From assembly GCA_045837725.1 (NCBI GenBank), contig JBEWZL010000212.1, forward strand, positions 1 to 64,000: 64,000 bases of DNA, written 5' to 3'. Below, in pieces: positions 14,660-54,907 of this stretch (the first letter of the stretch is position 1; every line of letters starts with the position of its first letter). The stretch is from Vermamoeba vermiformis. Taxonomy: Eukaryota. Made by a program: the position numbers and the translations under genes. Below the pieces are notes generated by a model. That model ran no database searches and was not told the origin of the DNA. It worked only from the letters and a program-made list of their open reading frames with translations.

Positions 14660-17600
14660 ATGGACAGATCCATAAGTCTTACTGAATCCGATTCTCTTTC
14701 TTCGAGGTAAGTGCGCTTTAAATATTGCGTCCGTTGTGCACGTTTTTGCGAATCCAATTTTCTGAACTAGTATGTTAGACTAAAAACGAACTGATTTCAT
14801 GCTCTGATTACAAAATATATCAGATAAATATTTTTTGATTAATACAGCAATTTGCTCTCGTAAAATCTTGCGTTCAAAACGGGATCTGCTGTCTGGTGTT
14901 GTCAGCAACTTAATGTTAATTTCAGCAACACCACGATATCACCAACGTATTTTTTATATGTCTACTAGTTCATATAATATCAAAATACTCGGAATATAAA
15001 TAATCAAAGTTTTAAAGTGCTAAGATTCTGTCTCAAATTAAACACTTATCAACAGAGCTGCCAGTCACAACCGACTATGGATTCAAGAGATCGTCTCGAG
15101 CATCGAAGTCAAACTGACGGAAGAGGAGATGGAGGCGATGGTTGAACGCGGTCGAAGATATGGTTTCAAGCAGATCCACCATATCGTGGATGTGGGTACC
15201 AGCTTTCAATTGGAGAACATGTTGCGTGTAGGAAAGAATTGGGTAGACGACCCTGACCGCATCGAACGAACTGCACTTCACTACGCTTGTCTGAGCGGCA
15301 AGCTAGAAATGGTCCAGATCTTGTTGCGAACTAGCGCCAATGTTGCTGCGCGAGATCGTGACGGAAGAACTCCGTTACATTTTGCTTGTTCGCGTGGTAA
15401 TATTGAAGTCGTTAAAGAGCTCCTGGGCGTTGGTAAGTCATTCTTTTTTTATTCCGAACTATAACTGGAAACAGTTTCTAATGACGACAATGCATTGATT
15501 GACAGGTGCCAATTTGAGCGCGGAAGATCGCGAAGGACTTTCATCACTTCATATTACAGTCGCATACGGACAAAATACACTATTGAAGTACCTCCTTGAC
15601 CAGACCTTGGTCCCGATGAACATTGAACAAACGACGCAAAAAACTGGTTTGCGACCGTTGCATGTTGCGATTGAAAGTAACAACTTGGAGGCGATAGAAC
15701 TGTTGCTGCAATACGGAGTTAACATCGAGGCCCCGACTTCTCAAGGAAAATCACCGTTGCATCTGGCTATCGAAAAGGATAACGTCGAGGCAGTCGTGAC
15801 TTTGTTGGAGAAAGGCGCGGATCCGGTCAAACCTTTCAACGGAAAAAAACCAATAGACATGGCTCTAGACGCGCAGAAGCAGAGCATTGTAACAGCACTG
15901 CGACAAAATGATCAGAAGAAACTTTATCCCGGCCACAGCTTGAAGAGTAGCAACAGTCCGAGACCTGAACGCAACGACAAGCCTGCAGCGATCAAGAACT
16001 TGGTGCTGCAAGGCGGCAGTGTCAAGTCAATCGCATATGTCGGTGCGTTGAAGGCACTAGAGAAGCACGGCGTGTCATTCGTGAAGGACATTGCACGCGT
16101 CGGAGGAACTTCCGCTGGATCAATTTTTGCTATGCTTATTGGTCTCGGCTACACGTGGGACGAATTGTTGCAAACACTGAAAGACCTCAATTTTGAGAAT
16201 CTACTGGACGGCAAGTTGAAGAACAAGCTACTCAAGATGAAAGACAAAAAACAGAACCAGATGCGCGTGTTCATCAACATTTTGAATGGAACGTTCAGTG
16301 AAATCTTCAAAGAGCTCCAATCCAAGTTTGGATTATTTGAAGGCGACAATTTATACAAGTTCCTATTGGAGAAGATTGAAGCCAAAGTGAAGTTATACTC
16401 CGATATACCCGCATCCGAAATTACTTTTGCGGATCTTCAAGCAATCAGAAACAAACACCCGAAGAGCTATTTTAAGGACATTTTTGTTATTGGCACCAAC
16501 TTGTCACTGCGAAGGACTGAAATATTTTCCCCGCTGCATACGCCCAATATGATCCTCGCTGACGCCGTGCGGATCTCATCGTCCATTCCCTTCGTGTTCG
16601 TGCCACATCGCAAGTATATCAAAAAGGACGGAAAAAGAATTCCTGATCCGGCCGGTCATCTTTACGTCGACGGTGGTGTCCTCGAGAATTACCCGATTTG
16701 GCTATTCGATCAGGCTCGATACATGGACCCGTACCGCACTGACAGCACCGCACCTGTCGTCAATCACGAGACTCTTGGACTGAGACTGGTGTCAGGCAAC
16801 AAGAAGACCAATTACGAGAAGTTACTTGGCCGCGGACAGCAAGTTGTCAGCGACGACAAGAGCGACAAGGACGTGACAATTGACTCGTTAATGAAGTTCA
16901 TCGTCAATTTCGCTGGCTGCTACAACAAACAGCAAGAGAACGTGCACTTGATCAACAATCACGACATGTCACGCACGGTCTATATTTATCACATGGACGT
17001 CAGTTTGATCAGTTTCAACCTCGGTGACGCGCAAAAAACAGCGTTAATGTTGTCAGGTGAAGTCGCAACCGACGATTACATGCGCAATAGAACTGCTAAG
17101 AAGAAAATGCACGTGCGTCTGAGTCGACTGGCCCTATTACACGATGAAATTTCAATCACAACTAGCGACAATATGCTCGATGATATATCACTAGAGTTGA
17201 GCAAATTGAAGAATATTTCACCCGTCAATTTGTACAAATATTTTATCGGCGCTACAAACGACGAGATCGAGTTTTTAAGGTACTGATTTTCACGTCCTAT
17301 GTTATCATTGCTAATTGATATTTTAGGACCATTCCTTTATGGAACTCACGAGACTCTGACGGCAATACAGCACTACACTTAGCGGTTTTGGCGTCTGATT
17401 ATTCGACCACGGATCTGATGCTCCAATCACGCGTCTTCAAGCAGCCAGCGGTACAAAACAACTTCAATCAAACCATCTTGGATTGTGCTATGAAAGTCAG
17501 CGAGCCTGCTAAATCTGATTTAATTCGTTTGGTGATTAGTGCAGGCGTGGTCTATTGTTTGCCCGAGAATAGATCTGCGGTCAGGCAGTCACTCGTTGAC

Positions 17601-17684
17601 AACGGATCTTTGGCCGCGACTCAACTGCAACGATTTGATTATTTCAATATCGAGGAAAGAGCTGAACAAAATCACTCAAAGTAA
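14660..17684 (+). CDS. Ankyrin-repeat patatin-like phospholipase
   Basis: About 5 N-terminal ankyrin repeats (TALHYA, TPLHFA, SSLHIT, RPLHVA, SPLHLA); patatin motifs NLVLQGGSVKS, GTSAG and YVDGG; an extra C-terminal ankyrin (GNTALHLA). First exon at 14660-14706 is inferred. Confidence 0.9.
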
Positions 17685-18855
17685 TTTGCCGTAATATTAA
17701 ATAAATAAATTGATGTATTGTAAGGATCTCGGTTGACATCTGTCATTGCATCAGGACTTAAAATAGGGCTGCTGAAACCGATGCAGAGCTGCTAACCATA
17801 TTAAATTAAAATAACGCAAACGAAAATCTCGGGTAAATCTCCAGTTGAAATGGAATCGAATCCAATTCTTAGCCAAGAAGATGATACAGTTTGTTAATAA
17901 GTGACTATTTACATAATGTACAGACGGAATTTACAATGAAAGATATTAATTACTTGCGAGCTCCTCTTTGTAACCTTGATCGGACTCGAAAAGCTACTTT
18001 CGGTGGATCAGGTCTTGTGAATTCTTTGTAAGTGATATCAATTAACCAAAATACTATCGAAAATGGCTGGAGAATTTCCAATGCTATACTTGATGCCTTC
18101 GATAAACCATTCTTCGTAGATTTAACCAAGTAGTTGTTAGTGAGCGATGCAGCAATCCTTTCGGCTACCATTGCGATAGTAATGCAAGTCAATACTGTAG
18201 TGCTAACGTTCAGTAGTCTGGAAGAGTGGCAAGCAGAAAGGTAAACGGACATCGTTCGAATCTGGCAACTCGATCGCGTTTTGTGGTGATGCTATTATTA
18301 ATAATAATGAATAATAAAACAAAAATTCTTATTTTAGCGTTCCTTTCCGATTACTTAATTCGTTCCGAATAGAATGCACGTGAACGTCAACAATTGACAT
18401 CAGATTAACGCCAGATTTAGCCATTACGAGATTAAATTTAATTACTCCGCAGCCTAAGGATTAGTACTCACATCATCCACTAAATAACTTACCAAATTTG
18501 AAGCTATATTAAACAGTTACGAGAGCAAAAATTGCGCAGCAGCCAATAACGATTCAATACTTGCCGATCGTTACAAGCGAATGAATCCGCATTATAATAA
18601 ATTGGAATGACCAAACTGGAGCTGGTAGCCTTCATTAATTAACGCATTGCTGCAGATCAGCATAGCAATCAATCGCGTTCGATAGCTAAGCGACGGTGTT
18701 ATTCACTTTATCGAAGGCATAATTGAAACCTACAAATAATTTCTGTTTGCCCACTGAAAAATCTGAACTTCCTTATTTGGCCCGCGAACCAGCGAGGTGC
18801 GTAAGTCTGCTAGAAATATTTTTTTTATCCAAACTTACGAGAAAGGCAGAGTACG

Positions 18856-20655
18856 ATGCTTCACTACGGTCGTATATTGCAGATAGCGATTTACCTTCTT
18901 GTTGGGCAAGCTATTGCCGGATTTGTCCCCGAATCCCATGTTGCGGAGTATCGAAACTTAACCAGCCCTATTGAATTGCCTAAACTCGGTGCATTTGTAT
19001 TTCCTGAACCTTATAATACTATGGCAAGCAGAATAACGAACCCTTTAGACTACGATTCTAACTATTGTAAGTTCGTAAAAATATTTTAAAATTATATCTA
19101 ATTATAAACAACTAGTTATTAGCCCCGATGTATTTCTATCAAGCAATCGACCAATCACCAATAACCACGCCCAAAGCAATGTGATGTACGTTTTGTACTC
19201 AATTTTCGAAGGCAAGATCGGCGGCAATTACTATTTGTACCTCGCCAAGGTGAATAAGAAGACCTTATCCTTGATCTGGATGAAAGATCTTGGTCGAATC
19301 AGTACTGCCCGAGAATACTACTTCAGCTTCACCGATCCATGGAAATTCTATTACTTTGACGGAAAAGCACTTGTAAGTGCCACGCAATCGCAATTCTTTT
19401 CCAGTACAAAAGTTTAATTGTTGTTCGTAGCTATCTGGAAGCATAGAAAATGAAGTTTTCTCCTCTGGCAAAGTTGAATTTGCCCCACCTGATTCAGATC
19501 CGTGGCCCCAAAAAGTGTACTTCCGTGCCCCAAGCACATCAGCCAATGATCAAGTTCATGCAATAGAAGTATACGTCCCCAATGGCATCCAACCAAAATA
19601 CGTGGGTTGTTACATACAGCAAGCAGGTGTCATCAAGAGATACCAACTTGCAAATGACTCCTTCATCTTCTCTTGCACTGTTGACAAATCAGGAGGTAAG
19701 GTTCATCCATTCAGTTACTAACTGAAACTAACCCTTCATATTCTAGAGTATGTTGTGATGCGTGGCCATCAGCAATTCACACTCATTAAGGTTGATGACA
19801 TGTCTGAAAGCACAATCGACATAGGTGACCAGATTGTGAGGGCCTACACTGTGGGGTACCGTGCCTTAGTCTATCAACAACAGTAAGATGCTGCCCATGT
19901 GAAATCAGATTACCATCCATTGCTGACACTGTCCTAGGAATTCCTCATTTGGCATGTCATCCTGGTATTCCTATTATGCTGTTGATTTCAATGACAAACA
20001 GCCCAACCTGGTGTATCAAACAGAGTTTGAGGTTGGCCCATGTATGTATACTTGTGCATTTCCATGACTATTTGTGGCTGACCTTCACAGTTCAACAAGC
20101 TGCATCTGATGCAGAGACATACTTGTCTTGGAATCATGCAGTCGACAGGCCAATGGCGGATCAGGCAGTGTGCAGACTCCTTTCTAAAGGCTCCATTCCA
20201 TACTCTTCTGTCAATGAGATAGGTTGTTTCAAGTAAGTGTCCTTATTTTGACATTTGACCTAGTAAATAGTCTGACTTCATGCTGCAGACTTGATGGAAG
20301 TCAACAATTCTTGGCAGTGGCTCCTGTATACTCAACCATGTATGATGCAAAGTATGCACAGAACATGGTCACTGACCAGACTGGTCAATTTGTGTTGTGG
20401 AATGCCATTCGTTTTCGAGATACACCTGAGGACCTTTACAGGTCCAATGCCTTCATTGCTACTGTTGGTGAAATAACTGCAGTGAGCCCTCTGGACCAAC
20501 CTCAAGCTCCAAGTGGTGGACCAAGTATTGGCAACATCCCTGACTGGGCCTGGGCTGTGGGTGTCATACTGTTTGTGGTCATCATTGGTGCTTGGGTTGG
20601 CTTGGCTATTTGGATCACAAGGGTCAAATTTAGAATTAGAGACAGACAACGTTAA
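18856..20655 (+). CDS. Uncharacterised type I membrane protein, multi-exon
   Basis: Signal-peptide-like N-terminus, beta-rich ectodomain over several exons, Pro-rich stalk, TM WAWAVGVILFVVIIGAWVGLAIWI and a short basic tail. Confidence 0.75.
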
Positions 20656-20670
20656 GTAAAGAGTGTGTTT

Positions 20671-22576
20671 TTAATTGCCTACTGATACACCAAGTTGCTG
20701 CATATTGACTGATGTGTCGTCATGGAAGCCGGTGATGGCTTCATACTCACGTTTCTTGCGCCAATAAAACAGTCCAAAGAAGGTAGCTCCAATGGCCAGA
20801 GCCAAGGCTACTGCAATTGTTGTGACAAGGTAACTGTAGTCTGAGCCAGGGGGTTCAGTGACTCCTGATGTAGGTGTGGCAATGGGGCCTGATGTGGGTG
20901 CTGCAATGGGCTCAGTTTCCTCAGGTAAGGGGGCTGCAGGATCCACAGGAGCTGGTGGTATTGTAATGTTGAAACTTGAACGTTGCCATTGACAGACCTG
21001 CTTTTGTTGTGCAACAGTAGCAAAGAATGTGTCATAACAAGTTGAGTCCCCGCTGCAACAATTTGGTGTGGAATAAGTTGGTGTGGGGCCATCACATGTT
21101 AATCCCTCAAAGGCTAACCATTGTTAGCTTCTCAATGAGTAAATGATAGTTATCTTACTAGTGCCTGTGTGGCAGGAATAGCAACAATAGAAGTCTAGCA
21201 GCTCTGACTTGCAGTATTCATGAATACAACTGTTTTCTGGTCTCCACTCAATCCAGCCATAAGCAGAATAAAATGGTGGGTAACATCTGTTTTGTTGACC
21301 ACACTGTGCCAACTGCTCCCATTTTTTCTGGCACACCTGTTCAACTTGCACCGCTAGACAAGATGTTCCTTCGTTTCTGTCAACAACGGATCTGTCAGTC
21401 AGTGCTCACTACTAACAGGAATTATCATTACCCATTGCAGCCACATGTCTGCAAAGGCCACCGACAATAGCTGTTGTCACGACAGTTGGTAGGTCCGTCA
21501 AATGGCAGCGTGCAGTGACCGACTTGATTGTTGGAGTCAACTGAATACTAGGTCATTACTAATTCACGATTGTCACTCCCAAGTGCTTACCGTTGTAGTT
21601 GTAATACGTGTGATTGCACACGAGTGGAATTTGACACTGCGACGGCCCGTCACAACGACCGCCGAATGGTACACTGAAGAATGGAGTGCACTTGCCTAGC
21701 CAGACAATTAGCACCTGAACTGACACGTCGTGAACTGTTTGATTGCACTTACTGGCACTACAACTGAGCCAGGGGTTGATGCACGGATATTTTGTTGAGG
21801 GACTGGTACATCTGTCGCCGACTGACTTGGCTGGGACACACTTCATATTTGGCGTGTTATCATAGTTGCAATAAGTCCAATTCGAATCTAGCGGGTCACA
21901 TATCTCATACGGACTACGAGAATTGGCGTTAAAACGATTTTTTAAATTTAAAATAATAATAATAAAACGAATTATTCTAAAAACACGTACTTATAAAGGC
22001 AGGTAGAATTACTACTCTCTGGACTCAGTGTATTGGCGCCGAGCAGGCATCGTTTAGTGCTAGTGAGTTCGTCGTCCAGACACTTTAAATGGGTTCCGTC
22101 ACATTGCGCATCTGCTACGCATTTGTCCATGTGGCCCGCTTTCGTCATACACTTAAAATAATATTAGTAATAATTAGGAGACGTTAAAATAATTACTAAC
22201 GTCGTTAAAGTGGTGGACAAATAATATTTTGAGAGGATCTGATCCGTACCTGGTTATTTACGCACACAAAATTCGAATAGCAATCTCCGTCAGTACTACA
22301 TGAGCACCCTATTTGTCCTTTAGTCTGATAACAATTCCTCGAGCAAATTCCACCAAGACAGCACAATCCGGGTTTACATCCAGTACTACACGAGCAAGCA
22401 GCACCTTCCTCTCCGCTCGCAACATAGGCAGTACAAACACCATTGCAGCACAGTCCGAAGGTGCACGGATTGTTAGCATCGCATGCGGAGTTTGCGCAAC
22501 TTGTACCGCAATTAACGTACGGCGACGATTGCAAAATAATAATAGCGCTCAATATAAATAATACTATTGTGTTCAT
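20671..22576 (-). CDS. Cysteine-rich repeat type I membrane protein, multi-exon
   Basis: Signal peptide MNTIVLFILSAIIIL, many short Cys-rich modules (G.xC..xxxC..GLCC..GxC), P/T stalk, TM LVTTIAVALALAIGATFFGLFYW, tail with YEAI. Confidence 0.85.
20864..20911 (-). repeat. 24-bp tandem duplication (PIAAPTSG/PIATPTSG) in stalk
   Basis: cctgatgtaggtgtggcaatgggg followed by cctgatgtgggtgctgcaatgggc. Confidence 0.8.
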
Positions 22577-22928
22577 AGTGGATCTTAGGCGCTCTGTACA
22601 GTTTAATGTAAGAATTTGCGAATCGAACAGTAAATTTACGCACTTACCAAATTTAGAATTTGAGTTTTCTTCCCGCGGTATGAAGCACGACTATAATTTA
22701 GAGGAAGCACTGGATAACACGTTAGCATAAGAATATTATTCTAAGTACCTAGTTGCACGAGCGGATGAAAATTTTGTGGTGCGTGATCTCCGGATAATAA
22801 TTTCCAGTTCAATAGGAACATTCAATTATCGTCCACCAGTTTATACGAAATTTAAACATAATTTTTTCTTGAACGCAGTTATTGAGAACGGCAACGGAGA
22901 CTCACTTTAAAATATTATTAGCGCCAGT

Positions 22929-25881
22929 TCAGTCTATTTTCGCTCGCAAGAACTGACAAAGTTCGTCCATCGTCTAAAAGAAAAGGTTTCAATTATTAAT
23001 GATCCGTCATATTAAATACGCAGCTACAATGACTTACAGGACGATCTTTGGGCTCTGCTTTGAGACACTTGTGGATCACTTCAACGAGTGCTGGATCTCC
23101 ATCTGATGGTATTTCAGGTGTTGCTGCTTGATCACGAATCTTTACAGCAATACTCAACTGATCTTCGTTGACGTGTGGTTCTGTTCTTGAAATGATTTCG
23201 TTCACTGAAATGTAATTGTTAGGTCGTTGCGCGATACAAAAGTGTTAAAACAACGTACCAACGATGCCGTAGGTCCAAACGTCTGATTTCACACTGTATG
23301 ACCGATCACGAAGACTTTCAGGAGCCTAATCAAAGTTTAAGTCAGCTACGCAAAGTACAGCACTCGAACCCTCTCTACGTACCATCCACCGAATAGGACC
23401 AAAACTCGTTTTCGTTTGACCTTTTGATCCTTCATCTTTGACGATGCGAGACATGCCAAAGTCACTGATCTTTGGTTGTTGGTCGTTTGTCAGCTGCGAG
23501 GAGAAACGAGGGTTAGGGTTTGATCGGGAAATCACGATGGTACAAAGAATGACTTACGAGAATGTTTCGTGCAGCAAGATCACGATGAACAATGTTGTTG
23601 TTGTGAAGATGAAGAAGACCGTAAGCGATCTTCATTGCAAACTCACGTTGTTTGGCGACATCGAGTTCCACTGTGCTGTCGTAGAGTAGTTGGTCGAGAC
23701 TTCCACCACCACAGTACTCGAGCACAATGCACGGATTGGGTCCATCGAGACTCACTCCAAAGGTCTGAACGAGGTTTGGGTGTGGTGCAATACCACTGTG
23801 AAGAGTTGCTTGGTAGTCCAACGAAGGCGAGCGTCAAACAGTGTTCTACTTACAGCGTTAGTTTGGCTTCAGCAAGGAATCCATCGACATCAGTGATTTG
23901 ATTGTTCACTTTGATCGCCACTTTTGCTCCTCGCCATTCACTGTTTGTGACACGTGTCAGTTCTGCATTCGTCGTACACGTACTTTTACATACCCCAAGA
24001 AGACTTTGCCATAGCTGCCAGCACCGATCTCTTTGATGAACACAAGACTCTTGTAAGGAATGTGCAATCGTTTGTCGATCTCTGGAAGCTCAATCGCTGC
24101 TGATGCAGTGGTGAAGCTGTCGTTGGTGACATTGCCCAGTGACGTGTAAGTGGTCTTGTTTGTGGTGTTGTTCGATGGCAGGTTCTGATACACACCGGGG
24201 GCAGTTGCTAGTATTGACGGAGGGTTGTTAATGTCATTAACGGGATTGGAGACAGCCTTGTCCTGCGTCTTCTTGTTCCTTCGTCGCAGCAAGAACACAA
24301 GAAGAAATGCACCTGCACCAAGGACGGCCACTGGAACTGCGATACCGACCCCAAGGGCCACTGCATCGACACTTGGAGGTGTGCTGCCATCACTTTTGGG
24401 TCCTTCAACGTTCGAAGAGGGTGATTGTGAGCCAGGGTTAGTTGTTCCGTTCGGAGGATTCACTGGCGAACTTTCAGGCGTGCTCGGTGGTGTATTTGAA
24501 GTCGGATTGCTAGCTGGTGAATACATTGGTGTAGAGCTCGGTGTTGTGCTCGCAACAGGTGACGCAATGCAGCTCGACTGAAACGACCACGAAAAGAAGT
24601 CGATAAAGACCCCAGTAGTATTGGACACAATAACTGACGTTATCTTTTGTGTCGTTGCCATATGAATGGCAGTAAATACGTTCGTCTGTGTGCTCGCATA
24701 GCCTCCGTTGTTTCTTTCCAGGGTCGTCACATCCACCAAGGTGAGGAAGTACTTCGTTTGCGTGGCAATAACGTACGCCAAATTGTCGCAATCTACGAAT
24801 GATATAGCAGCCATAGTAGGTGTGAAAGGAGTGCTGACAACTTGCGTTATTGAAGAGTCGTTGCGGCTGAAGACGCATTCAAGTTGCTGCAACGAATAAG
24901 AATTACAAATTTAATATTAAATCAAACGAGAGACTTACCAAAGTAACTGTACAGACCACCCAATTAGTAGGAGAATACACGGCAATCGATATTGAAGTTG
25001 GTTTTGCCATCGTAGTGTAATCTCCGAACTTGGTGCCTGCGCTACCGGCCAGAATTCCAATGTATAAATTACCCGAGCCATAAGCAACTCCAGCTACTAG
25101 TACGGTTGACGCTAATAATCATATTAGTCCTCGGTGTAAGTATGAAATTTTCATAGAGATCTGAAATCCACCGGTGCACTCCACAAACCTAACGCTTACC
25201 TGATAATCTCCTTGTTTCAAAGTGTTCCATGAATGAGATGTTAAATGGCGGGATTTGAGTCCCCTCACGAAGCACGACGTTAAATCCAGCAGATTCGGTG
25301 TTCGACACTCCAATAGCGTCATACGTCTCGCTAGTCGAAGTATAATTCTTTAAAGATGAGCCAGATATATGCCAGAATTTAGTCTATTAAACGTTAATTT
25401 CTGCGCTACTGTATCGAAAAATATTTGAATCGATGTGCCTCAGCTTAGAGAACAGTATTCGGGTTATAAATATGACTTACATCCATGGCAACTATATTAC
25501 ATTCTGTTGTTCCATCCACAACGTCGATGTCTTTATACGTTTGAAAGGGTGGCGGATTCAGTATTCCTTTGATGATTGGAGCTCCGGTGAAGTTGTAATA
25601 ATATCTTGCAAAACCAGTGTAGTTCGTTGATTGTAGCCATATAGAGCAGAACTCTAAACCCGATGATGCGGCCGGATAAGACTCGATCCGCAACTTTGTG
25701 GGAGAAGTGGCGTTGAGAGCAAGTATGCTATAATCCAGCTTCGGATTAACGACTGAAATAAAGAAATAATTAATTCGAGTGTTCACTATAATATCTGTTT
25801 ACCTCCAAGTGCCATAGAAGAAGAGATCTGATCTAAAAGCGCAACGGATGCCAACACAAGTAACGCTGCATTTTTGTTCAT
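22929..25881 (-). CDS. Receptor tyrosine-kinase-like protein, tandem copy 1 (RK1)
   Basis: Signal peptide, beta-rich ectodomain, S/T/P stalk, TM, GAGSYGKV, VAIK, HRDLAARN (tyrosine-kinase-type catalytic loop), DFG, GPIRWMAPE, DVWTYG. Confidence 0.92.
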
Positions 25882-26261
25882 GACGGTTGATTGCACGTAC
25901 TTTGGTTATTCAAAAATGAATAATCATGTTTCCGTTGCGTATGATCTTATCACTTTTGACATTAAATGACACTTTGACACCTAAACAAACTCCTAAAACG
26001 ACAATTTTTCGGTTAATTCACTAACAAGAATCGATTTGAATAAATCCGATGCAATAAGGTCCTTAATCGTGCATACTAGATTTATGTAATGTCAGCAAAG
26101 TATGAGAATTTCAAAGTGTTTTTACCTTTTGATTCAGTTCGGCGAGGAGATGTAGTACCTATGACGTACTTAACAGTCGTGATAGCTATTGAATTATATA
26201 CATATTTTATATTGGCGACTACTGTTGCTAATCACTTAATCGAGGGACGGCGAATCACAGT

Positions 26262-29200
26262 TCAATCTATTTTTGCGCGCAAGAATTGACAAAGTTCTTC
26301 CATCGTCTGTTAAAAGAAAAGGTTTAAATTATTAATGATCCGTCATATTAAATACGCAGTTACAATGACTTACAGGACGATCTTTGGGCTCTGCTTTGAG
26401 ACACTTGTGGATCACTTCAACGAGTGCTGGATCTCCATCTGATGGTATTTCAGGTGTTGCTGCTTGATCACGAATCTTCACTGCAATGCTCAACTGATCT
26501 TCGTTGACATGTGGCTCTGTTCTTGAAATGATTTCGTTCACTGAAATGTAATTGTTAGGTCGTTGCGCGATACAAAAGTGTTAAAACAACGTACCAACGA
26601 TGCCGTAGGTCCAAACGTCTGATTTCACACTGTATGACCGATCGCGAAGACTTTCAGGAGCCTAGAGAAAGTTTAAAGATCAGCTATGCGAAGTACAGTA
26701 CTCGAACCATCTCTACGTACCATCCATCTAATAGGACCGAAGTTCGTCTTCGTGTGTCCTTTTGAGTTCTCTTCTTGAATGATGCGCGACATGCCAAAGT
26801 CACTGATCTTGGGTTGTTGATCGTTTGTCAGCTACGTGGAGAAACAAGGGTTAGGGTTTGGGTGGCACGGAAACCAAAGAATGACTTACGAGAATGTTTC
26901 GTGCAGCAAGATCACGATGAACAATGTTGTTGTTGTGAAGGTGAAGAAGACCATACGCAATCTTCATTGCAAACTCGCGTTGTTTGGCGACATCGAGCTT
27001 GCTATTGTCATCATAGAGCAACAGATCGAGACTTCCGCCGCCACAGTACTCGAGCACAATGCACGGATTGGGTCCATCGAGACTCACTCCAAAGGTCTGA
27101 ACGAGATTTGGATGTGGTGCGATACCACTGTGAAGCACAGCTGTTAGTCATACGAGGTACAATCGACTGTTCTACTTACAGTGTCAATTTGGCTTCAGCA
27201 AGAAATCCATCGACATCAGTGATTTGATTGTTCACTTTGATCGCCACTTTTGCTCCTCGCCATTCACTGTTTGTGACACGTGTCAGTTAATCATTGTAAT
27301 ATCACTAAGCGGTTTTACATACCCCAAGAAGACTTTGCCGTAGCTGCCAGCACCGATCTCTTTGATGAACACAAGACTCTTGTAAGGAATGTGCAATCGT
27401 TTGTCGATCTCTGGAAGTTCAATCGCTGCTGACGCAGTGGTGAAGCTGTCGTTGGTGACATTGCCCAGTGACGTGTAAGTGTTCTTGTTTGTGGTGTTGT
27501 TCGATGGCAGGTTCTGATACACACCAGGATCAGTCGTTTGCACGGACGGCGGAGGACTATCGATGTCTTTGACAGGGTTGTCGATGGTTTTCTCTTGCTT
27601 CTTTTTCTTGTTCCTTCGTCGCAGCAAGAACGCGAGAAGAAAGGCACCTGCACCAAGGACGGCCAATGGAACAGCGATGCCGACCCCAAGGGCCACTGCA
27701 TCGACACTTGGAGGTGTGCTGCCATCACTTTTGGGTCCTTCAACGTTCGAGGAGGGTGATTGTGAGCCAGGGTTAGTCGTTCCGTTGCCAGCTGGGCTGC
27801 TCGGAGAGTTCACTGGCGTGCTCGATGGTGAGATCTGAGGAGTGGATGGTGCGCTTGTTGGAGCGTTGGGAGAGCTTTGAGGGGACTTTTGAGGCGTATT
27901 TGAGGGTGTACTGACCGGCACAAAGTTCGGGGTGCTGACTGGCACAAAGCTGGGCGTGGTTGTGACTGGAGGAAGTGGTTCAGTGCAACTCGACGGAAAG
28001 CTCCAAGAAAACACATCCAAGAAAACACCACTTGAATTGGAGGTCAATATCGATGTTATTTTCTGCGTCGTAGCGATGCTAACATAGCCATAAGTGTTCG
28101 AGCCAGATGCGCTATTATACCCGATGTTGCTAAGTTGCTGGGTGTTTACATCCAGCAAGCTCAGGAAATAATTGCTCTGCGTGGCAATAACAACGGCTAG
28201 ATTGTTGCAATCTGCGAATGAAATAGCGGCCATAGTCGGAGTGAATGGCGTAGTAACAGGGGTAAAGACGCTTGGCGCGTTGCTAAAGACGCATCCGAAG
28301 CTCTGTTGCAGCTGTGAGCTTAGAATATCATATATAATTAAGTTTACTTACATCAGTAATTGCGCAAACTGCCCATATGTTCTCATCAAACACTGCGATC
28401 GAGATCGAGTTTGGATAGGTCGTCGAAAAGTCTCCTACTGGGATAGCAGATCCGCTAAAGATCTTTCCGATGAATAGATGGCTCGTGTCATTAATAACTG
28501 ACGCTACGAGCAAAGAGGTAGCTATAGTATATAATCGTCGATAATTAGCCTCATAACAAGGTCGAAAGTGTTCGAAGGAAAAATACCTGATAGCCTCCTC
28601 GTTTCAACACCGTCCTTGAAGTTAATAACAAACGGCGATATTTGAAAGCCCTTGCGAAGGACGACATTGTATCCGTTGTAGGATTCAAGATTCGATACTC
28701 CGATCGCGTCAAAGGTACCGTTTGTTGTAACATCAGCTTTGGAAGGTGATCCCGATATATACCATGTCGTAGCCTATTACCAAAACCGTTAATATTGATA
28801 AAAATAAAACTCCAACGGAAAAGTGACCAAATCCGAAAACTAAAAGAGGTCAATTGAATTGGTCCCAATAGTTTTTCACTTACATCCATGGCAACAACAT
28901 TGCAATCGGTCGTTCCGTCAACTACATCGATATCTGTGTAGGTTTTTGCTGGCGGCACGTTCAAAATTGGTTTGCTTGATGGAATGCTTGCCAATTCGTA
29001 ATTAAATCGCGTGTAATTAACCAATCCTGTAGATTGCAGCCAAATTGAACACAAGTCTATGCCGGGCGATGATGCGAACGACTCAATCCGCAACTTTTTT
29101 GGATTTGGATCGGACGACAGTGGCATACTGAACTCCACGGTGGGACTCGCTTCAATACTAAGCATTAATATATGAATAGTATCAATAAGTGCGGAATGAT

Positions 29201-29287
29201 CTTACCATTAACAACTGCAAGGCACGTTGCGATTAAGTCCAAAATCACTACGGAAGCCACCGCAATTAACGCTGTCCTTTTGTTCAT
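26262..29287 (-). CDS. Receptor tyrosine-kinase-like protein, tandem copy 2 (RK2)
   Basis: Same exon structure and motifs as RK1. Kinase exons and some introns are near-identical to RK1. Confidence 0.92.
27908..27955 (-). repeat. 24-bp tandem duplication (PSFVPVST/PNFVPVST) in RK2 stalk
   Basis: gtactgaccggcacaaagttcggg / gtgctgactggcacaaagctgggc. Confidence 0.75.
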
Positions 29288-29526
29288 TGAGCTGCAGTAG
29301 TGTCTCTCGTTTTAATTAAATAAACTCGAGAAACGTTTACGTTGCATTTTGTGTTTGCTAAAAATGACACTTGACACCGCTCAACTTCCCAAACGAAAAT
29401 TTCAAAGCAAAAACCTAATCTAAGAATCTACTTCCTATTAAATTTACTAAACTAAAGTGTTTGCCTACTAACCGAGCAACGTTTCTTGGGCTTGGCAATT
29501 TTTGAGAATTCCAACTTTTTTTTTAA

Positions 29527-32198
29527 TCAAATCTTCGATCGAATGAAATTACAAATGATTTCCATATTCTAAATAGGAACGGTTTAGCAAAGAGTAACTA
29601 AGAATAATTGAATGACGTACCGGTCGATCGTTCTGATCAAATTTGAGGCACATTTTGATAACTTCAACTAATAACGGATCTGCAGTTGCGGGAATGCTTG
29701 GCGTCCTGCCGTGATCGCGAATTTGAATAGCGACTTGAAACTGATCTGCATTGATGTGGGGCTCTTCGCGGGATATTATTTCGTTCACTAAATAAAAATT
29801 AGTTTTTGCTTCTATATTTGGAAATAGCTTCGAATCTCTGGAACGCAGAACAAACAACGTACCAACAATGCCGTAGGTCCAAACGTCTGATTTCGCACTG
29901 TATGAGCGATCACGAAGACTTTCAGGAGCCTATTCAAAGTTGAAAAAGGTAAGCGAAAGTTTGTCAAAAGCATCTCAACGTACCATCCATCGAATGGGAC
30001 CAAAACTCGTTTTCGTTTGACCTTTTGATCCTTCATCTTTGACAATGCGAGACATGCCAAAGTCACTGATCTTGGGTTGTTGGTCGATTGTCAGCTACGA
30101 GGAGGAACATGTCAGGTTTGAGTGGTACGTCGCGCAGTGACTTACGAGAATGTTTCGTGCAGCAAGATCACGATGAACGATGTTGTTGTTGTGAAGGTGA
30201 AGAAGACCGTAAGCGATCTTCATTGCAAACTCGCGTTGCTTTTCTACAGTTATCACATCTTCCACGTCGTACAACAGCTTGTCGAGACTTCCGCCACCAC
30301 AGTACTCGAGCACAATGCACGGATTGGGTCCATCGAGACTCACTCCAAAGGTCTGAACGAGGTTTGGATGTGGTGCGATACCACTGTAGAGGCAAATTAG
30401 TAAGTTTAACAGCGATTTAAGTATTCCGCTTACAGCGTTAGTTTGGCTTCAGCAAGGAATCCATCGACATCAGTGATTTGATTGTTCACTTTGATTGCCA
30501 CTTTTGCTCCTCGCCATTCACTGTTTGTGACACGTGTCAGTTCATCGTCCAAGGCAGTACAATGTGTTACTTACCCTGCGTAAACCTTCCGTAACTTCCT
30601 GCGCCAATCTCGTTGTTAAATATCAGATCTTTGTAGGGGATTTGAAGCCGCTTGTCAATGTCGGGCAATTCAATCTCAGATCTATGCTCCTCATCAAGGT
30701 CTTTGGCTGGGTTTTTAATGGAAGCACTGTCGTGACCCTTCTTTTTGCGTAGGAAGAATATCAACAGAAACACGCCGAGAGCAACGGCGGCTGTTGGAAC
30801 TGACACCCCGACAGCAACGGCGACAACGTCTACTGTTGGTGGCATGGTAGCTGCGACTTCAACTGGCTGATCGGCGTAGACCGGGACACTCTGTTGCGGA
30901 GGATCAGTTGGGAGTATTGTCACTGGTGTGAGTGTGAGTGGCTGTGAAGGTAAAGGCGGGTCAATTGGTGCCAATGGCTCGGAGCAGTTTGGAAACTCGG
31001 GATAGAAATAACTGTCTAAATACAATCCAGTCGAGTTCGACGCAAATACGAAGATGTAGTTATCATATGACGAGTGGTGCAGTGCTGTGACCGATGTATC
31101 CACGACCTCTTGGTAGAGGAGCGGCACATCCGTGTTGAACGAGTAGATCCCGATGAAATACGATTGGTCGTCATATGTCACAAGCGCTACTCTGTTGCAG
31201 TTCAACATCGATGCTGATATGAAGTTGGCGTAGGCATTGGACATCGACAAAATGCGCGTTGGATCGGCGCTGAAGATGCAAAACGTGCCCTGAAAAAATT
31301 ATTCCGTTAGTAATAAATTATTATTAATAATAACGTACTGATCGTCCGTAGCAAACTACCCAAGTAGTTTCGTTATATACACCAAGAGTAATGCTGTCAA
31401 TGAAACTCAAATTGTAGTGAACAACAATCGTTGCAGAATTTTTTTCAGTTAATGTTCCGATGATTAATGTATCGTTGCTTGATACCGCTGCAAAGAGTAC
31501 CGTAGTGTCTATTTAATTGGTCGTAAATACTTAATTTTTCCATAAAAGGAAATTCTGTTGAACGTATAAAAGATCTCCGTTGACATACCCGACAATCGTT
31601 TGGTGGCGAATACGTTAGTATAATTATAGCCCAATGAGCCTCCTGAGTAAGTCAGAGACGTATTTGGTTGCCATATTGTTGCGAGGAAATTTGAAGAGTT
31701 CAAGTGCGAAACACGAATTGAAGATGCATTCGTTGAACTGATTCCAAATTGCACGCCAATATCACCATAAATATTGTATTGATTTTCCTATAATTTATAG
31801 TCAGAAAAACTTCATCAAGAAATGACACGGATTTACCTTCATGGCAGCAATATAACACCCGCTACCTCCATCAACAACGTCCATATCTACAAAGCTCGTC
31901 GGATATGGTATTATATACGGAGTTGAAGTCATTCCTGTTGTGTTATATTTTCTGGCTTGGATGTAGCCATAAGAGGCTGTCATCCAGGCAACACAATTGT
32001 ACGTGAAGTTCCCATCGCCGTAAGCATATGACTCTATTTTAGACCATATATTTGCTGTTGTAGCGACTTGAAGTGTTCGTGTTCGCTCTACATCCAAGTG
32101 TCAGTTGGATGTGCAGGATCTGATTGCAACTTACGCAAGGAACTGCAGTACACTAGCGATGACAATATAGCGATTATTGTTAGTGCAGTTCGAATCAT
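29527..32198 (-). CDS. Receptor tyrosine-kinase-like protein, tandem copy 3 (RK3); apparent 1-nt frameshift in the Gly loop
   Basis: Same architecture as RK1/RK2. It reads GAGSYG-RFTQG where one extra A would give GAGSYGKVYAG in the same intron phase as the paralogs. Downstream kinase exons look intact. Confidence 0.85.
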
Positions 32199-32370
32199 GG
32201 TCAAGCATTCAATCCAACAATTAATTGAACACAGTTTACTGGGTGTACTGCTCGTGCATCTGTTTTTTTAGTTGTGGCTTTCGTTCATTCATGAATGAAT
32301 AAATTTTCCTGCAAATAGATTGCCTGTATTAGTACAAGTAATATACTATAGTCGATGGAGAAGCACCGTA

Positions 32371-32545
32371 CCTGAGAAAAGATTGCCGTTGTTGGTGTCG
32401 GGATCCGTCCATGATCCACCAGCTGGGACCTACCAGATAATATTCTTAGGAACTCGTGCAGCTTGTGTAATGCTTTGTTAAGGGCGTGTATGAGAGGCTG
32501 AATCTTTCACTGGCACCAGGTCAGAGGTGAGCAGAACCAGTTTCA
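32371..32545 (-). pseudogene. Possible decayed exon fragment
   Basis: GC-richer patch in an AT-rich spacer. Minus frame reads LVLLTSDLVPVKDSASHTRP*QSITQAARVPKNIIW*VPAGGSWTDPDTNNGNLFS and ends at a GTACGG donor-like site. Confidence 0.25.
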
Positions 32546-33090
32546 AGCTTTAAGTTCTCTACTGCTTTGAACGAAAGAATTTATCACATCACTATAATCA
32601 TGCGATGATTATAATAAGTTGTAGGTACTATGATCATTGGCACGATGGACAGACCGTCAAATCTGAAGTTTCGCTTTTTTTCCTAATCAAGCAGTGAATC
32701 GTACTTCAATGAAGACTGTATTTATTATTATTATACAATATGCACCTAGTTATTGAAATATTGAATTCGAAACTGTTCGATCCTCATACCGAAGATAGGC
32801 CAGGGAAAATCCAACAGCTTAATTACTCGCGCTTATTTCGTTCAATTTTTTGTTGAATTTTGAAATAAACGGTCATCCACTCGAATTTCAATATTACTAA
32901 CCACTGCAGTGCTTGTCAGTAGATGCTGCTAAAAATAAAAATTAATAATCAGCTTTGAAATAATATTTTATGGTGTAAATTTGAATATTCACGATTTTAA
33001 ATATTGGAATTTGGTGATAGTATTTGTTTGGATCGGCATCCAAGTATTAATTTAATGAATTATTCCAATATTCGGTTATTTAAACTTACA

Positions 33091-33466
33091 TTAATCGCGC
33101 TTTGATTCAGCACCAACGTGAGCAGGTGCCACTTTTTTGGGCAACAATTTATCAATTTCTACCGCTGAATCTGACTCGTCACTGACTGAACCAGATTCTT
33201 CGTCAGACTTCTCGCCTTTCAATTTTCTTTTCATGCGATCTCTTCGCTCGCAGTATCTAGCAACTACATACGACATTAATATGGAATATTTATGAGAAAG
33301 GCCCTTTTAAGAGCGGATTACATACTCCAGATGGCAATAAGAACTACAATAGCAACCAGAACTAATGCGATCGCAGAATACTTCACCACGGTAGGCCACA
33401 GATCCACTGGTGGCGGTGGTGGGGGCTTCCTTCCTCATCCCATTTGTGGTTGATAGTTTTGAATTC
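33091..33466 (-). CDS. Small single-pass membrane protein, 5' end unresolved
   Basis: Spliced frame PPPPPVDLWPTVVKYSAIALVLVAIVVLIAIW-IARYCERRDRMKRKLK.. with an acidic tail. The upstream frame joins only if the G5 run at 33421-33425 gains one base. Confidence 0.55.
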
Positions 33467-33678
33467 TAAAATTGAAATGAACGCGGTGATCTTTCAAAAC
33501 CTTTCACGAACTCACAATCAATGGTCTAAATTTAATATAAATGCATTCCTCCGTGGCCGACACGAGGATCAACCGTAAAAGATGCCAGTAGATCTTCAAT
33601 GCGCAGACAACGAGAATGATAATGACAAGAAATATAGTTGATTGTCGAGGACTATTTACATTTGTATTTACAATCATG

Positions 33679-36600
33679 TTACATGTCCATTGTGCTTTCG
33701 TTCAACTTTTTCTCGATCTGCTGCTCCGTGTCCTCCATCAACAAGTTTGTCAACTGATCTAATCGTTGATGTACGTGTTGATTATGTCGCTCAAGCATTG
33801 CGAGTCGATTCAATAGCTCGGTCATGACATTTTCTTGGTTCTCTTCTTTGTCTTTATCTTTTTCGAGCTCGAAACTTCGGCCCAGCGGGAACACGGTCAA
33901 AACCGAGTTAGGATTCTTCATCTGGGTAATACAACATTAGCTTGGGACCTACTAACTATATCTATAATACGAGCACATACCTTCTTATAGATCTCGCGTT
34001 CTAATTGCGACAACTGGTTCATCTCGCCGTTTGTTATTCGGTCTTTCAAATACATCACAAAGTACAAGTAATGTAATGGATTTTGTTCCGTTTCCAAATG
34101 TTTTTCGAACTCTAAATATCCATATTAACATTGCTCTTTCTAAAAAAATAAGCATAATCAATTTACCTCGACCTTTGTCTTGGAACACTTCTCGTTTCAG
34201 CGTGCAAATAAAACAGCTCTCGCGCATTTCTGTCTTCGCTTCTTTGTATTTTGATCGCATTTCTGCGAAGTGATCGACCAACACTGCTAACAACTATCGA
34301 TTCAAACGGTTAGATCCAGATCAAGAGTTGACAACAACAAAAGCGTACCGTGTTCGTCATGACAAGTGCAATCATAATATAGAACACAAATAAGAAGACG
34401 ATCCACGCGTATTTCATCGCGTCTAATGGTGGCGGAAGCAATGTGTAGATCAATGAACCTCCAGAAATAACACTATTTCCATATTAGTAAAGCCACGTGA
34501 CGCACCGCTCAACGACACTGCTTACCCAGCCCAAAGGTTCGTTAAAGTACATTGCAATACAGTCCCACAAGGAATACCGGATTCAGTGCTGTATTGGGCT
34601 TGGAAGACGTAGTACGATAAAATGGACAACAAATAGACACCAAACACCGCTAGCAGCAGCTACGGAAGAATTAATATGGTCCTTTGAAGCTATCGGCTGG
34701 TCAGTACGTACTGTGATGGCCCAAGAACTAACGCTGCTCTTAAAGGCTTTGAACACAAACACCAAGTGCTTGGAGCGGAACAGCAGTTGCGTCAGTTGAA
34801 AGCCAATGAAGTACGGGGACACGGCCACGCCCAAAATACCCGATGCAGCATACAATATGTGGTACCACACTCGCCCGTCCTTGAGCCAAAAGGCGACTGA
34901 TTGCATGTAGTATCGGAATTTTGAGACATGCAGCTTTTTCTCCGTGATCGTGTCCCACCGCACAAAGAGATAATTTTTGTTCTTGGGAAATTTCTTCGTC
35001 CATTCTTTCCTATTTAGGAAAACTCCATATTTCATGAAAAACGTGATCAACATCACCAACGAGAACGCCAGCGCTAAAAATAGCGTTAATTTCAGTTAGT
35101 CAAAACGGAGTTTGATGGACTTACCAAATATGGTAAGTATGGTAACAGAGTAGTTCAGCTGATCGTTGTCGAAGATTTCAGATTGGATCAATAGCATGAC
35201 GTTCAGAACGAACGCAATCGCGAAGGAAATGTTCCATGCAATCTTGTAGAAGAGCGAGACAATGTTGCCGTAGAACTTCAGCTTGCGTTCTTCAATCAAC
35301 AACCGTTCATGAATCCATTGAATGAACGTTTTGTGCCGCACTGGTGTTTTGGCCCTATTAAAAGACGATAATTAAATTGGTATTCCAAAGCAAACGAATA
35401 TTAATTATTTTACCAATCAACGTCTTGAGAGACCATGTAATCGTCTAATTTCTTCATCAATGACTTTTCCTTTTGTTTGATTGTTTTTTCCTTGTTTTTC
35501 TTGCTCAGGAACGGCTTGAACAAACTTGAAGGAATTTGGAAATAGATCTATTGCAAAGAATCGTCAAAAATTGGTCCTAAATACAGATTATGTAATATCT
35601 AGTACCTTATGCAAGGCTTTGTTATGCAGGACTTCGACGGACGCGAGCTTGTTTTTGGAGTTCTGTTCACAGGCCTGATAACTGTCCGTCAACTCTTTGT
35701 TCTGCAGTCGATGGCTCTCTGCGTAACTGTTCAGCTGTTGGATCAGTTTGAAGGCTAGAGTAGCCAAGTTATTTGACTTGGGCACGGATTTGGAAGATTT
35801 GTTTTTGAGCAAGGAGGTCATTTTGACGAATGCGTCAAAGTCCAGTAATTGAATGATACGGTTAATAACGAGCTTGTCCGCTCTGTCTGAAGAGGCCAAA
35901 AGGAATTCAATGACCGACAGCTGTCACGGTTGTTAGTACTTGCCAAAAATGGAAGTCAAAGTACGTACCTTAAGATCGATCATCTTGACCTTGTAGTCCA
36001 TAGTATTGTTACTTTCAATGCAGGGATTGTTCAATATGTTGTTAATGGGCTTAATAATAGCGGAGTTCATCATGGCCATCTGCAAGAATTCTAGAATATA
36101 CAATTATTATCAATTACATTTTTCGTACCTGACCCACAGGCGAGTCTTTGACAAATTCCGTTAGCGTTTTGAACATTTGAATAGCAAGCTCGATGTTAGC
36201 CTCGCCTAAAATAGTCTCGAATAACTTCAAGAACTGCACTGATTCCTTAATGAGCATGACTGAGGGATCTGAAATCTCGGTCTTCACGGGTGGCGAGTCT
36301 TGACTCAGAATTTGAAGAATACGGCATACATTATAGACCATCTGCCCTTTCTTCAATATTACCAAATTTGGATCTTCAATGATATTGTTGTCGGGTTCGG
36401 ACATTTTTTCACCCGGATCCATACTCGCACCAATACTTGCCCTAAAATACGAATATAAGCATCATTCATGGTAAATCCGTAAGTGCTTGGCGGCTATTAT
36501 ATGCGCGTTAACATAATACGCTATAAAAGACTTACCAAGCAAGAGTTGAGTGCGTGTTTTGCCACTGACCACCGTTGTCCCGCTGGTTTGCCACCATTCT

Positions 36601-53572: not shown

Positions 53573-54907
<1,335 letters not shown>

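Follow-up and report, generated by a model that had tools for sequence, protein, structure and literature searches.

A patch of 1750 bp (19602–21351) that has lost nearly all of its CpG dinucleotides lies across the abutting 3' ends of two convergent genes, here called A and B, in an otherwise CpG-rich stretch of 64,000 nucleotides (the window). The patch is probably the product of slow CpG decay in situ under purifying selection, most likely caused by a local, long-lived domain of CpG methylation (5mC), whatever its trigger. The fuller statement, in which such a domain was triggered in situ by overlapping convergent transcription, is put forward as a working explanation with somewhat less than an even chance of being right.

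The segment 19602–21351 is the longest CG-poor run of the window. It contains 14 CG, with a CpG observed/expected ratio (o/e) of 0.16 at a G+C content of 0.449, against a CpG o/e of 1.14 in the remainder of the window. At the background density of 0.0508 CG per bp, 88.9 CG would be expected, and the Poisson probability of finding 14 or fewer is 6e-23. Six of the window's eight CG-to-CG gaps longer than 140 bp fall in this segment. Compared with 235 other overlapping 1750-bp windows, whose minimum CpG o/e is 0.83, the patch stands at z = -8.4 for CG. In the same comparison, the CA/TG o/e is raised to 1.63 from a background of 1.11 (z = +6.7), GpC is unchanged (o/e 1.00, z = -1.0) and TA is not raised (o/e 0.63, z = -0.9). 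Undoing about 100–110 CpG-to-TpG/CpA changes brings the CpG o/e to 1.02–1.09 and the CA/TG o/e to 1.15–1.10, values that are jointly background-like, and yields an ancestral G+C content of about 0.51. A strong CpG deficit, a matching excess of TpG/CpA and untouched GpC are the sequence features expected of a 5mC-deamination footprint, and all three are present. The original prediction had placed about 15 CG in 19621–21360, where 15 were counted (CpG o/e 0.17, G+C 0.449), and its count of 7 CG in 21601–21661 was correct. It had also described TG/CA as abundant and G+C as not low, in agreement with the values above. Its picture of a genome that is CpG-rich elsewhere holds within the 64-kb window and within 9 kb from a relative, and its scope is limited to these sequences.

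Maximum-likelihood (ML) segmentation assigned the depletion to 19431–21461, with support intervals of 19385–19483 on the left and 21351–21478 on the right, and a two-state model was better than a one-state model by 2ΔlnL = 122. The core patch is flanked by shoulders of partial depletion, which extend on the left from the ML edge at 19431 to 19601 (CpG o/e 0.36) and on the right from 21352 to the ML edge at 21461 (CpG o/e 0.53). The island had been predicted to be sharply bounded. According to the segmentation and the shoulders, its boundaries are sharp to about one nucleosome but not to a single base. Both edges are located inside exons of the gene models.

These models were built by hand with GT-AG introns, and six of the twelve introns were confirmed by spliced, RNA-like contigs from run X5, which is presumed to be RNA. 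Gene A (18856–20655, plus strand) consists of seven exons (18856–19066, 19116–19372, 19431–19695, 19747–19882, 19938–20041, 20091–20232 and 20289–20655) encoding 493 amino acids, with a signal peptide, one C-terminal membrane helix and a short basic tail. Four of its introns match X5 spliced contigs, two exactly and two within 1–2 letters, with extra letters at the joint. Gene B (20671–22576, minus strand) also has seven exons (22576–22250, 22151–21991, 21913–21753, 21695–21591, 21540–21432, 21391–21159 and 21113–20671). Its product of 512 amino acids comprises a signal peptide, a Cys-rich ectodomain, a Pro/Thr stalk, one membrane helix and a short tail, and two of its introns match X5 spliced contigs. 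The two stop codons are separated by a spacer of 15 bp (20656–20670), so that the predicted transcripts must overlap in their 3' untranslated regions.

A Pfam search with eight exons returned nothing above the cut-off: no family was found for gene A, and gene B gave sub-threshold matches only. The only relatives of gene A are distant and C-terminal (P0137 and P0138). With its exon 7, the HMMER library gave three matches, one fragment at 98% and two weak C-terminal ones; there was no match among longer proteins, none in the Atlas and no locus in metagenome_contigs. Gene B has a relative that is 96% identical, from another assembly (P0139). Genes A and B are described as a convergent pair of spliced orphan genes, each single-copy and each encoding a type I membrane protein.

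The depletion affects only the 3' parts of both genes, as had been predicted. In gene A, the CpG o/e is 0.97 in the 5' part (18856–19601) and 0.15 in the 3' part (19602–20655); in gene B, it is 1.11 in the 5' part (21352–22576) and 0.17 in the 3' part (20671–21351). The patch sets in 746 bp from the start codon of gene A and 1225 bp from that of gene B, and runs to both stops as one block that covers 1054 bp of gene A and 681 bp of gene B.

Within the patch, exons and introns lose CpG on both strands, which was another element of the prediction. The five introns inside the patch have no CG in 256 nt, compared to 16 in 429 nt outside, and NCG codons amount to 1 of 131 inside and 25 of 119 outside (Fisher 4e-8). 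Conversely, NCA codons number 58 of 131 inside and 33 of 119 outside. Among the 14 surviving CGs, eight are in Arg CGN codons (codon positions 1–2), five span codon boundaries and one belongs to a GCG codon. The Arg codons, correctly anticipated as frequent survivors, are presumably retained because either transition would change the residue. The reading frames of both genes are intact and read through both patch edges. Neither strand nor coding status influences the loss, which in coding DNA has passed through the filter of selection.

The depleted state is common to related strains, as it was found in both haplotypes of sample X1, in X4 and in X5. For 40 of the 152 differences, the positions were compared with those of CpG. 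Of the 17 inside the patch, 2 were at remaining CpG positions, which represent 1.6% of the positions (binomial p = 0.03); each removes a CpG without changing the amino acid, one in the other haplotype and one in X4. Outside the patch, 2 of 23 differences were at CpG positions, which represent 9.6% of the positions. At one site in the same small set, a TpG of the window corresponds to a CpG in the relatives. CpG decay is possibly still active.

Genes A and B belong to a block (17650–32727) that also comprises three receptor-kinase paralogues. In a relative of about 75% nucleotide identity (L001, L002), the syntenic position lacks this block and is occupied by some 2.1 kb of unrelated DNA. The two metagenome loci retrieved through the neighbouring patatin gene are devoid of genes A and B, so that substitutions cannot be polarized from them. 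A search with the ankyrin-patatin sequence returned mainly patatins of bacteria, together with a single relative at 94%. One X4 contig (20670–20826) continues into unrelated sequence directly past the stop of gene B, and genes A and B may therefore be non-abutting in some relative. A 21-letter motif from this loose end near the gene B stop was absent from the 64-kb window at up to 3 mismatches.

In the proposed explanation, a small heritable domain of CpG methylation would long have occupied the 3' ends at which genes A and B abut. As 5mC deaminates to T, CpG would have become TpG or CpA wherever selection permitted. The domain may have been set up by the overlap or collision of the two transcription units, their stops being 15 bp apart. 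Antisense RNA or stalled polymerases would attract a DNA methyltransferase together with heterochromatin, and the mark would extend outward as far as the active chromatin near each promoter, a limit that would spare the first 0.75 kb of gene A and the first 1.2 kb of gene B. We infer 5mC as the cause, the persistence of the mark to the present day and convergent transcription as the trigger. The original prediction is partly supported. At the level of sequence, the footprint of a methylated domain that it announced is borne out in the TG/CA mirror, the intact GpC, the selection filter and the single-copy state; methylation itself is deduced from the nucleotide sequence and should be regarded as probable. 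The prediction also mentioned a chromatin landmark or an RNA-directed mark, either of which we infer as a conceivable form of the domain. The short distance between the stops, and hence the overlap of the transcripts, provides a concrete basis for the RNA- or transcription-directed idea. Nothing was found in favour of a centromere-type landmark.

Several observations weigh against a trigger by convergent transcription. The patch is far longer than any plausible overlap of 3' untranslated regions, and spreading or long read-through must be assumed. A second pair of convergent open reading frames (ORFs) in the window, ending at 49611 (plus strand) and 49743 (minus strand), 131 bp apart, shows no depletion (CpG o/e 0.96–1.37), indicating that convergence alone is not sufficient. 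The X4 contig 20670–20826 is CpG-poor, even though the genes are perhaps not abutting there. A footprint this deep requires a stable mark, and it is located here at 3' ends, whereas the precedent in Neurospora is dynamic and promoter-enriched (PMC3764098). Against 5mC itself, it may be objected that 5mC in the protists studied so far has been reported from transposons and from genes that are silent or viral-like (PMC12344493, PMC12695648), whereas genes A and B are spliced in X5, the presumed RNA run. Among the window ORFs that were examined, which are a part of the total, no DNMT-like ORF was noticed.

Gene-body-type methylation of each gene separately is an alternative that is unlikely but deserves consideration. 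As in animals, plants and green algae, methylation would extend in each gene from some hundred bp past the start codon to the end. The two methylated bodies would meet by the chance of the 15-bp convergence, and the overlap of the transcripts would play no role, although the patch would here too be a 5mC footprint formed in situ. The sparing of 746 bp and 1225 bp at the 5' ends and the extension of the depletion to each stop are what is expected of such methylation, and both genes yield X5 spliced contigs. A comparable arrangement, with 5mC absent beside start sites and present further into the gene, is described for green algae (PMC12636532). Widespread occurrence is not observed within the 64 kb, since no other ORF-bearing region is depleted, including two actin genes, a histidine-pathway gene and the three kinases, and the 1750-bp minimum of 0.83 applies to all of them. 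Gene-body methylation is thus not a general habit here, and two adjacent orphan genes as its sole targets would be a coincidence. It was moreover reported to be absent in the amoebozoan, the glaucophyte and the heterolobosean studied (PMC12344493).

Homology-directed methylation appears rather unlikely. A present or past copy of the 1.75-kb segment elsewhere, resulting for instance from a mobile element or from capture by a virus, would have caused repeat- or small-RNA-directed marking of the parent locus. Marking over the shared stretch only would explain why both edges are mid-exon, without regard to gene structure, and the block around the locus is variable, being absent in a relative. In MIP of Ascobolus and at the PAI genes of Arabidopsis, methylation is known to match the extent of a duplication, and these systems, like RIP in Neurospora, share with the patch sharp edges that disregard gene structure. 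The patch differs from them in several respects: no duplicate of it was found in the window, other duplicates there show no effect, a CpA-to-TpA signature is lacking and neither frame is broken. More precisely, no second copy of the patch exists in the 64-kb window, and repeat and inverted-repeat scans of 18500–22800 gave only short matches at chance level. The depth of X1 contigs is alike inside (362–451) and outside (403–629) the patch, and none of these contigs breaks off at either edge at a likeness of at least 85%. Genuine duplications within the window have retained their CpGs: the kinase segments 22925–24451 and 26258–27786 are 89% identical with CpG o/e of 0.96 and 1.01, and two actin copies, of a protein that belongs to a cluster of 12,508 members, are 98.6% identical with 0.91 each. 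The signature of RIP is not found, as CA is raised rather than lowered, TpA is not in excess (TA o/e 0.63) and no frame is damaged; the intact frames and the kept Arg codons argue against a mutational burst. Transitions between the receptor-kinase (RLK) paralogues (0.150 at CpG sites and 0.037 elsewhere) were considered as a separate line of evidence and discarded, as the figure is inflated by the counting of CpG present in either copy and by an excess of synonymous sites. The original prediction had also stated that the island is not on a transposon. Indeed, it is single-copy and without transposon or viral signature, as judged from Pfam, the repeat scan, the kinase neighbours and viral_contigs, which contained no relatives of exon 7 of gene A or gene B. 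Rfam returned no family over the whole 64-kb window.

It is very improbable that the segment was already CpG-poor when it arrived, whether through gene conversion or introgression, with the homologous locus of a heavily methylated relative or paralogue as donor, or as an assembly chimera. Sharp mid-exon edges and a length of 1.7–2.0 kb would fit a conversion tract, and Arg-rich survivors would also be expected from a donor with a methylated genome. Yet the patch and its flanks show no difference in the ten codon families on which CpG has no bearing (summed chi2 p = 0.18), and the ranges of GC3 and of intron G+C overlap. An impression that the patch introns were foreign-looking, being less AT-rich, was ruled out by counting (0.31–0.45 inside, 0.16–0.46 outside). 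The TG/CA excess and the CpG deficit cancel out at the local background level, and the divergence of X4 and X5 pieces is similar inside (1–8%) and outside (1–7%). The left edge is bridged by an X1 contig (19233–19650) with 0 differences and by an X4 contig (19501–19651) from a water metagenome; at the right edge, none of the listed contig pieces bridges with 31 letters on each side. No donor-like sequence was encountered in the viral or metagenome scans. A chimeric or foreign insert had been named as a possible refutation, and the check came out against it, with the left edge crossed in two samples, both haplotypes depleted, frames that read through the edges and indistinguishable codon families.

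Loss of CpG without methylation, for example through selection against CpG in the overlapping RNAs or through a local bias of mutation in which 5mC plays no part, has nothing specific in its favour and is extremely unlikely, given that introns, spacer and both strands are hit equally, that TG/CA mirrors the loss without any general loss of C or G, and that GpC is unaffected.

The preferred reading, an in-situ 5mC domain, can be compared with known systems. CpG decay is characteristic of germline-methylated DNA, such as the bulk genome of vertebrates and the methylated compartments of invertebrate 'mosaic' genomes. The patch resembles this DNA in its CpG o/e of about 0.2, its reciprocal TpG/CpA excess, its normal GpC and the retention of coding CpGs mainly where they are constrained. 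It differs in being one 1.75-kb island with mid-exon ends in at least 64 kb of CpG-rich DNA, within a compact genome of single-celled type. The DNA methylation of disiRNA loci (DLDM) in Neurospora crassa is triggered by convergent transcription, can be switched on and off, and is enriched at promoters (PMC3764098). It shares with the patch a location in single-copy, gene-rich DNA, and its methylation originates from convergent transcription and not from repeats, as is proposed for the patch. Unlike DLDM, the footprint occupies 3' ends, spares the 5' regions (CpG o/e 0.97 and 1.11) and must have been stable over evolutionary time. In Acanthamoeba, Cyanophora and Naegleria, 5mC is described as sparse and repressive, on young transposons and on silent, often virus-derived genes (PMC12344493, PMC12695648). 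The likeness consists in a mark, probable in the present case, that is local within a genome otherwise unmethylated, and in lineage-specific targets, the present block being absent from a relative; the difference is that the patch has no similarity to transposons or viruses, affects only the 3' parts of genes and not their promoters, and lies in genes that give X5 spliced contigs. The open-access literature searched yielded no account of convergent genes whose 3' ends carry a CpG-depleted island, which is not proof of absence.

If the proposed explanation is correct, a small methylated domain would have been held for long at one fixed place, on DNA that is neither repeat nor virus, whereas 5mC in microbial eukaryotes has so far been described as sparse and directed at transposons and silent or virus-derived genes. 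The new element would concern methylation induced by convergent transcription, of which the descriptions to date, from Neurospora, are solely of a dynamic mark. It is doubtful, and nevertheless conceivable, that the patch records a stable, evolutionarily old counterpart of it on single-copy expressed genes of an amoeba-like protist, arising purely from the collision of transcription units and limited outward by promoter-proximal active chromatin. With 14 CpGs inside and dozens just outside, the patch constitutes a test locus that could show how methylation is recruited to unique DNA and what stops its spread. Simple CpG o/e scans would find such domains in genomes for which no methylome exists and, if the domain does result from transcriptional collision, such scans alone could map collision heterochromatin across protist genomes. 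Should a methylome show nothing, the patch would be the fossil of a lost mark and would help to date the loss of methylation in the lineage.

The original prediction of a CG-scarce segment at 19621–21360 was borne out: it holds 15 CG, with a CpG observed/expected ratio (o/e) of 0.17 and a G+C content of 0.449. For the entire 64-kb window, the CpG o/e is 1.12. The CG-poor run itself, hereafter the patch, spans 19602–21351, 1750 bp with 14 CG where 88.9 are expected from the background of 0.0508 CG per bp (P(≤14) = 6e-23). The median CG-to-CG gap in the window is 15 bp, and six of the eight gaps longer than 140 bp fall inside the patch. Relative to 235 other overlapping 1750-bp windows of the 64 kb, the lowest of which has a CG o/e of 0.83, the patch has a z of −8.4 for CG o/e and +6.7 for the raised CA/TG, while the GC dinucleotide (1.00) and TA (0.63) are ordinary. 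The patch is a genuine, statistically extreme feature. A two-state CpG model is better than a one-state model (2ΔlnL = 122) and places the left edge at 19431 (support 19385–19483) and the right edge at 21461 (support 21351–21478). Since the core is flanked by partly depleted shoulders of 110–170 bp (o/e 0.36 and 0.53), the description as sharply bounded holds to about one nucleosome, but not to one base.

The window DNA is eukaryotic, with GT-AG introns of 40–98 nt. The models of the two convergent genes were built by hand. Gene A (18856–20655, + strand), of seven exons, encodes a protein of 493 residues that carries a signal peptide, a basic tail and a single membrane helix, which is C-terminal. 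The seven exons of gene B (22576–20671, − strand) encode 512 residues; the protein has a membrane helix and short tail in addition to its signal peptide, Cys-rich ectodomain and Pro/Thr stalk. For six of their 12 introns the model is confirmed by splicing in contigs of X5, a run from a close relative whose RNA nature is a guess. Introns 21696–21752 (57 nt) and 21114–21158 (45 nt) of gene B (− strand) are in frame and contain no stop codon; the database protein P0139 reads through the latter, so that ORF-style gene calling mis-annotates this genome. The RNA-seq run X14, of the same species label, gave no read on A or B (18800–22600) from 1.85 billion letters, which counts as no test. No Pfam family exceeded the cut-off for either gene. 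Among 1.84 billion representatives, relatives of gene A exon 7 were limited to one 98% fragment and two weak C-terminal ones; gene B exon 7 has a single 96% relative, from a different assembly. Viral contigs contained no relative of A or B, the RNA family search found none, and the repeat search returned nothing meaningful. Both patch edges lie within exons, exon 3 of gene A and exon 6 of gene B (exon 5 if the maximum-likelihood edge is used).

Deamination of 5-methylcytosine (5mC) causes a CpG-specific, strand-blind and selection-filtered loss with a matching gain of TG/CA. The patch behaves like the decaying CpG of germline-methylated DNA. The CpG o/e drops from 0.97 in the 5′ part of gene A to 0.15 in its 3′ part, and from 1.11 to 0.17 in gene B. 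Undoing about 100–110 CpG-to-TpG/CpA changes brings CpG o/e to 1.02–1.09 and CA/TG o/e to 1.15–1.10, jointly at the window background, and implies an ancestral G+C of about 0.51. NCG codons number 1/131 inside vs 25/119 outside (Fisher 4e-8), and NCA codons are commoner inside (58/131 vs 33/119). CG is absent from the five introns inside (256 nt), against 16 in the seven outside (429 nt). As originally noted, many surviving CGs are Arg codons: eight of the 14 are in Arg CGN, in which either transition alters the amino acid; of the others, one is in GCG and five span codon boundaries. A single mutational burst is disfavoured because Arg codons would have been struck too. The reading frames remain intact through the patch. 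The decay is best read as slow, in place and under selection. As the loss takes the form that deamination produces, the patch is probably an in-situ 5mC footprint.

That this footprint was set off by overlap or collision of the A and B transcription units is proposed tentatively. Such overlap would direct methylation to the patch, and promoter-proximal active chromatin would stop its spreading, sparing the 5′ ends. This trigger is favoured because one unbroken domain covers both 3′ ends, because only 15 bp separate the stop codons, a distance at which the 3′ UTRs must overlap, and because the 5′ 0.75–1.2 kb of each gene is spared. In Neurospora crassa, convergent transcription sets off methylation of unique DNA (PMC3764098). 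On the proposed reading the patch would share this trigger logic, but it lacks two defining features of that disiRNA-locus methylation, which is described there as dynamic and promoter-centred. The patch is also much longer than the likely UTR overlap, and depletion is missing from a second convergent ORF pair, whose ends at 49611 and 49743 are separated by 131 bp, so convergence by itself is insufficient. A further point against this trigger is a 313-nt contig of the water metagenome X4, which matches 20670–20826 with two differences and continues with 156 nt unlike the window directly after the stop of gene B; gene B may not adjoin gene A in some relative.

Separate gene-body methylation of A and B is unlikely; against a general process of this kind, no other gene in the window is depleted. 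An unseen, diverged copy directing methylation by homology is somewhat less likely still. The patch differs from the repeat-triggered changes RIP and MIP in having neither a duplicate in the window nor a TpA signature. A general repeat-triggered process is unlikely because CpGs are retained in the window's duplicated DNA: kinase segments 89% identical across 1.5 kb have o/e of 0.96 and 1.01, and actin genes 98.6% identical have 0.91 each. The intronless actin genes (574–1728, − strand; 53753–54907, + strand) are inverted, 52 kb apart, and encode the same protein; their 16 differences over 1155 bp consist of transitions only, suggestive of a recent duplication or of gene conversion. The receptor-like Tyr/Ser-Thr kinase genes form a tandem array of three (22925–24451, 26258–27786 and 29852–30675, − strand), 80–89% identical, with Pro/Ser/Thr-rich stalks and normal CpG content. 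In Acanthamoeba, Cyanophora and Naegleria, 5mC is described as targeted at transposons or viruses (PMC12344493, PMC12695648), whereas the patch has no such similarity and promoters are spared.

Import of a CpG-poor tract, or a chimera, is improbable. A foreign donor is disfavoured since CpG-unrelated features match the flanks: ten CpG-unaffected codon families are alike inside and outside (summed p = 0.18; Val alone p = 0.006, uncorrected), and GC3 and intron G+C ranges overlap. Contigs of X1, a run of the same species label that is possibly the assembly's own sample and so not independent, cover 30/30 bins, with collapsed-contig depths of 362–451 inside the patch, similar to 403–629 outside, as for single-copy DNA, and two haplotypes, each CpG-poor over the patch. 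Two contigs span the left edge, one of X1 (19233–19650, no differences) and one of X4 (19501–19651, six differences). At the right edge, none of the listed pieces extends 31 letters to both sides; continuity there comes from the assembly and from the frame staying open. Pieces of X4 and X5 diverge by 1–8% inside and 1–7% outside, so the patch shares the history of its flanks. Among 40 displayed of 152 differences, 2/17 inside fall on remaining CpG positions, which make up 1.6% of positions there (binomial p = 0.03). Both of these, seen in the other haplotype and X4, are synonymous and remove a CpG. Outside, 2/23 fall on CpG positions (9.6% of positions). Position 19682 is TpG in the window and remains CpG in the other haplotype and X5. 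It is suggestive only that decay is perhaps still running. A cause without methylation is the least probable of all.

In two metagenome loci of a relative at about 75% nucleotide identity, the upstream ankyrin-patatin gene is followed by 2.1 kb of unrelated DNA (L001:1101–3226; L002:711–2836) and then by the homologue of 32728–34905. Window 17650–32727 (15 kb; A, B and the three kinase paralogues) is missing at this syntenic place. Related species are thus polymorphic for insertion or deletion of the 15-kb block, and the patch locus sits in a variable, lineage-specific block. The ankyrin-repeat and patatin-like phospholipase gene (15499–17684, + strand) is one long exon whose best matches, besides one 94% relative, are bacterial patatin-like proteins (30–38% identity); lateral transfer is possible. 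A search of open-access literature found no description of such a CpG-depleted island. The best reading of the patch, on its sequence, is that a small methylated domain persisted for long on unique genic DNA and left this scar.
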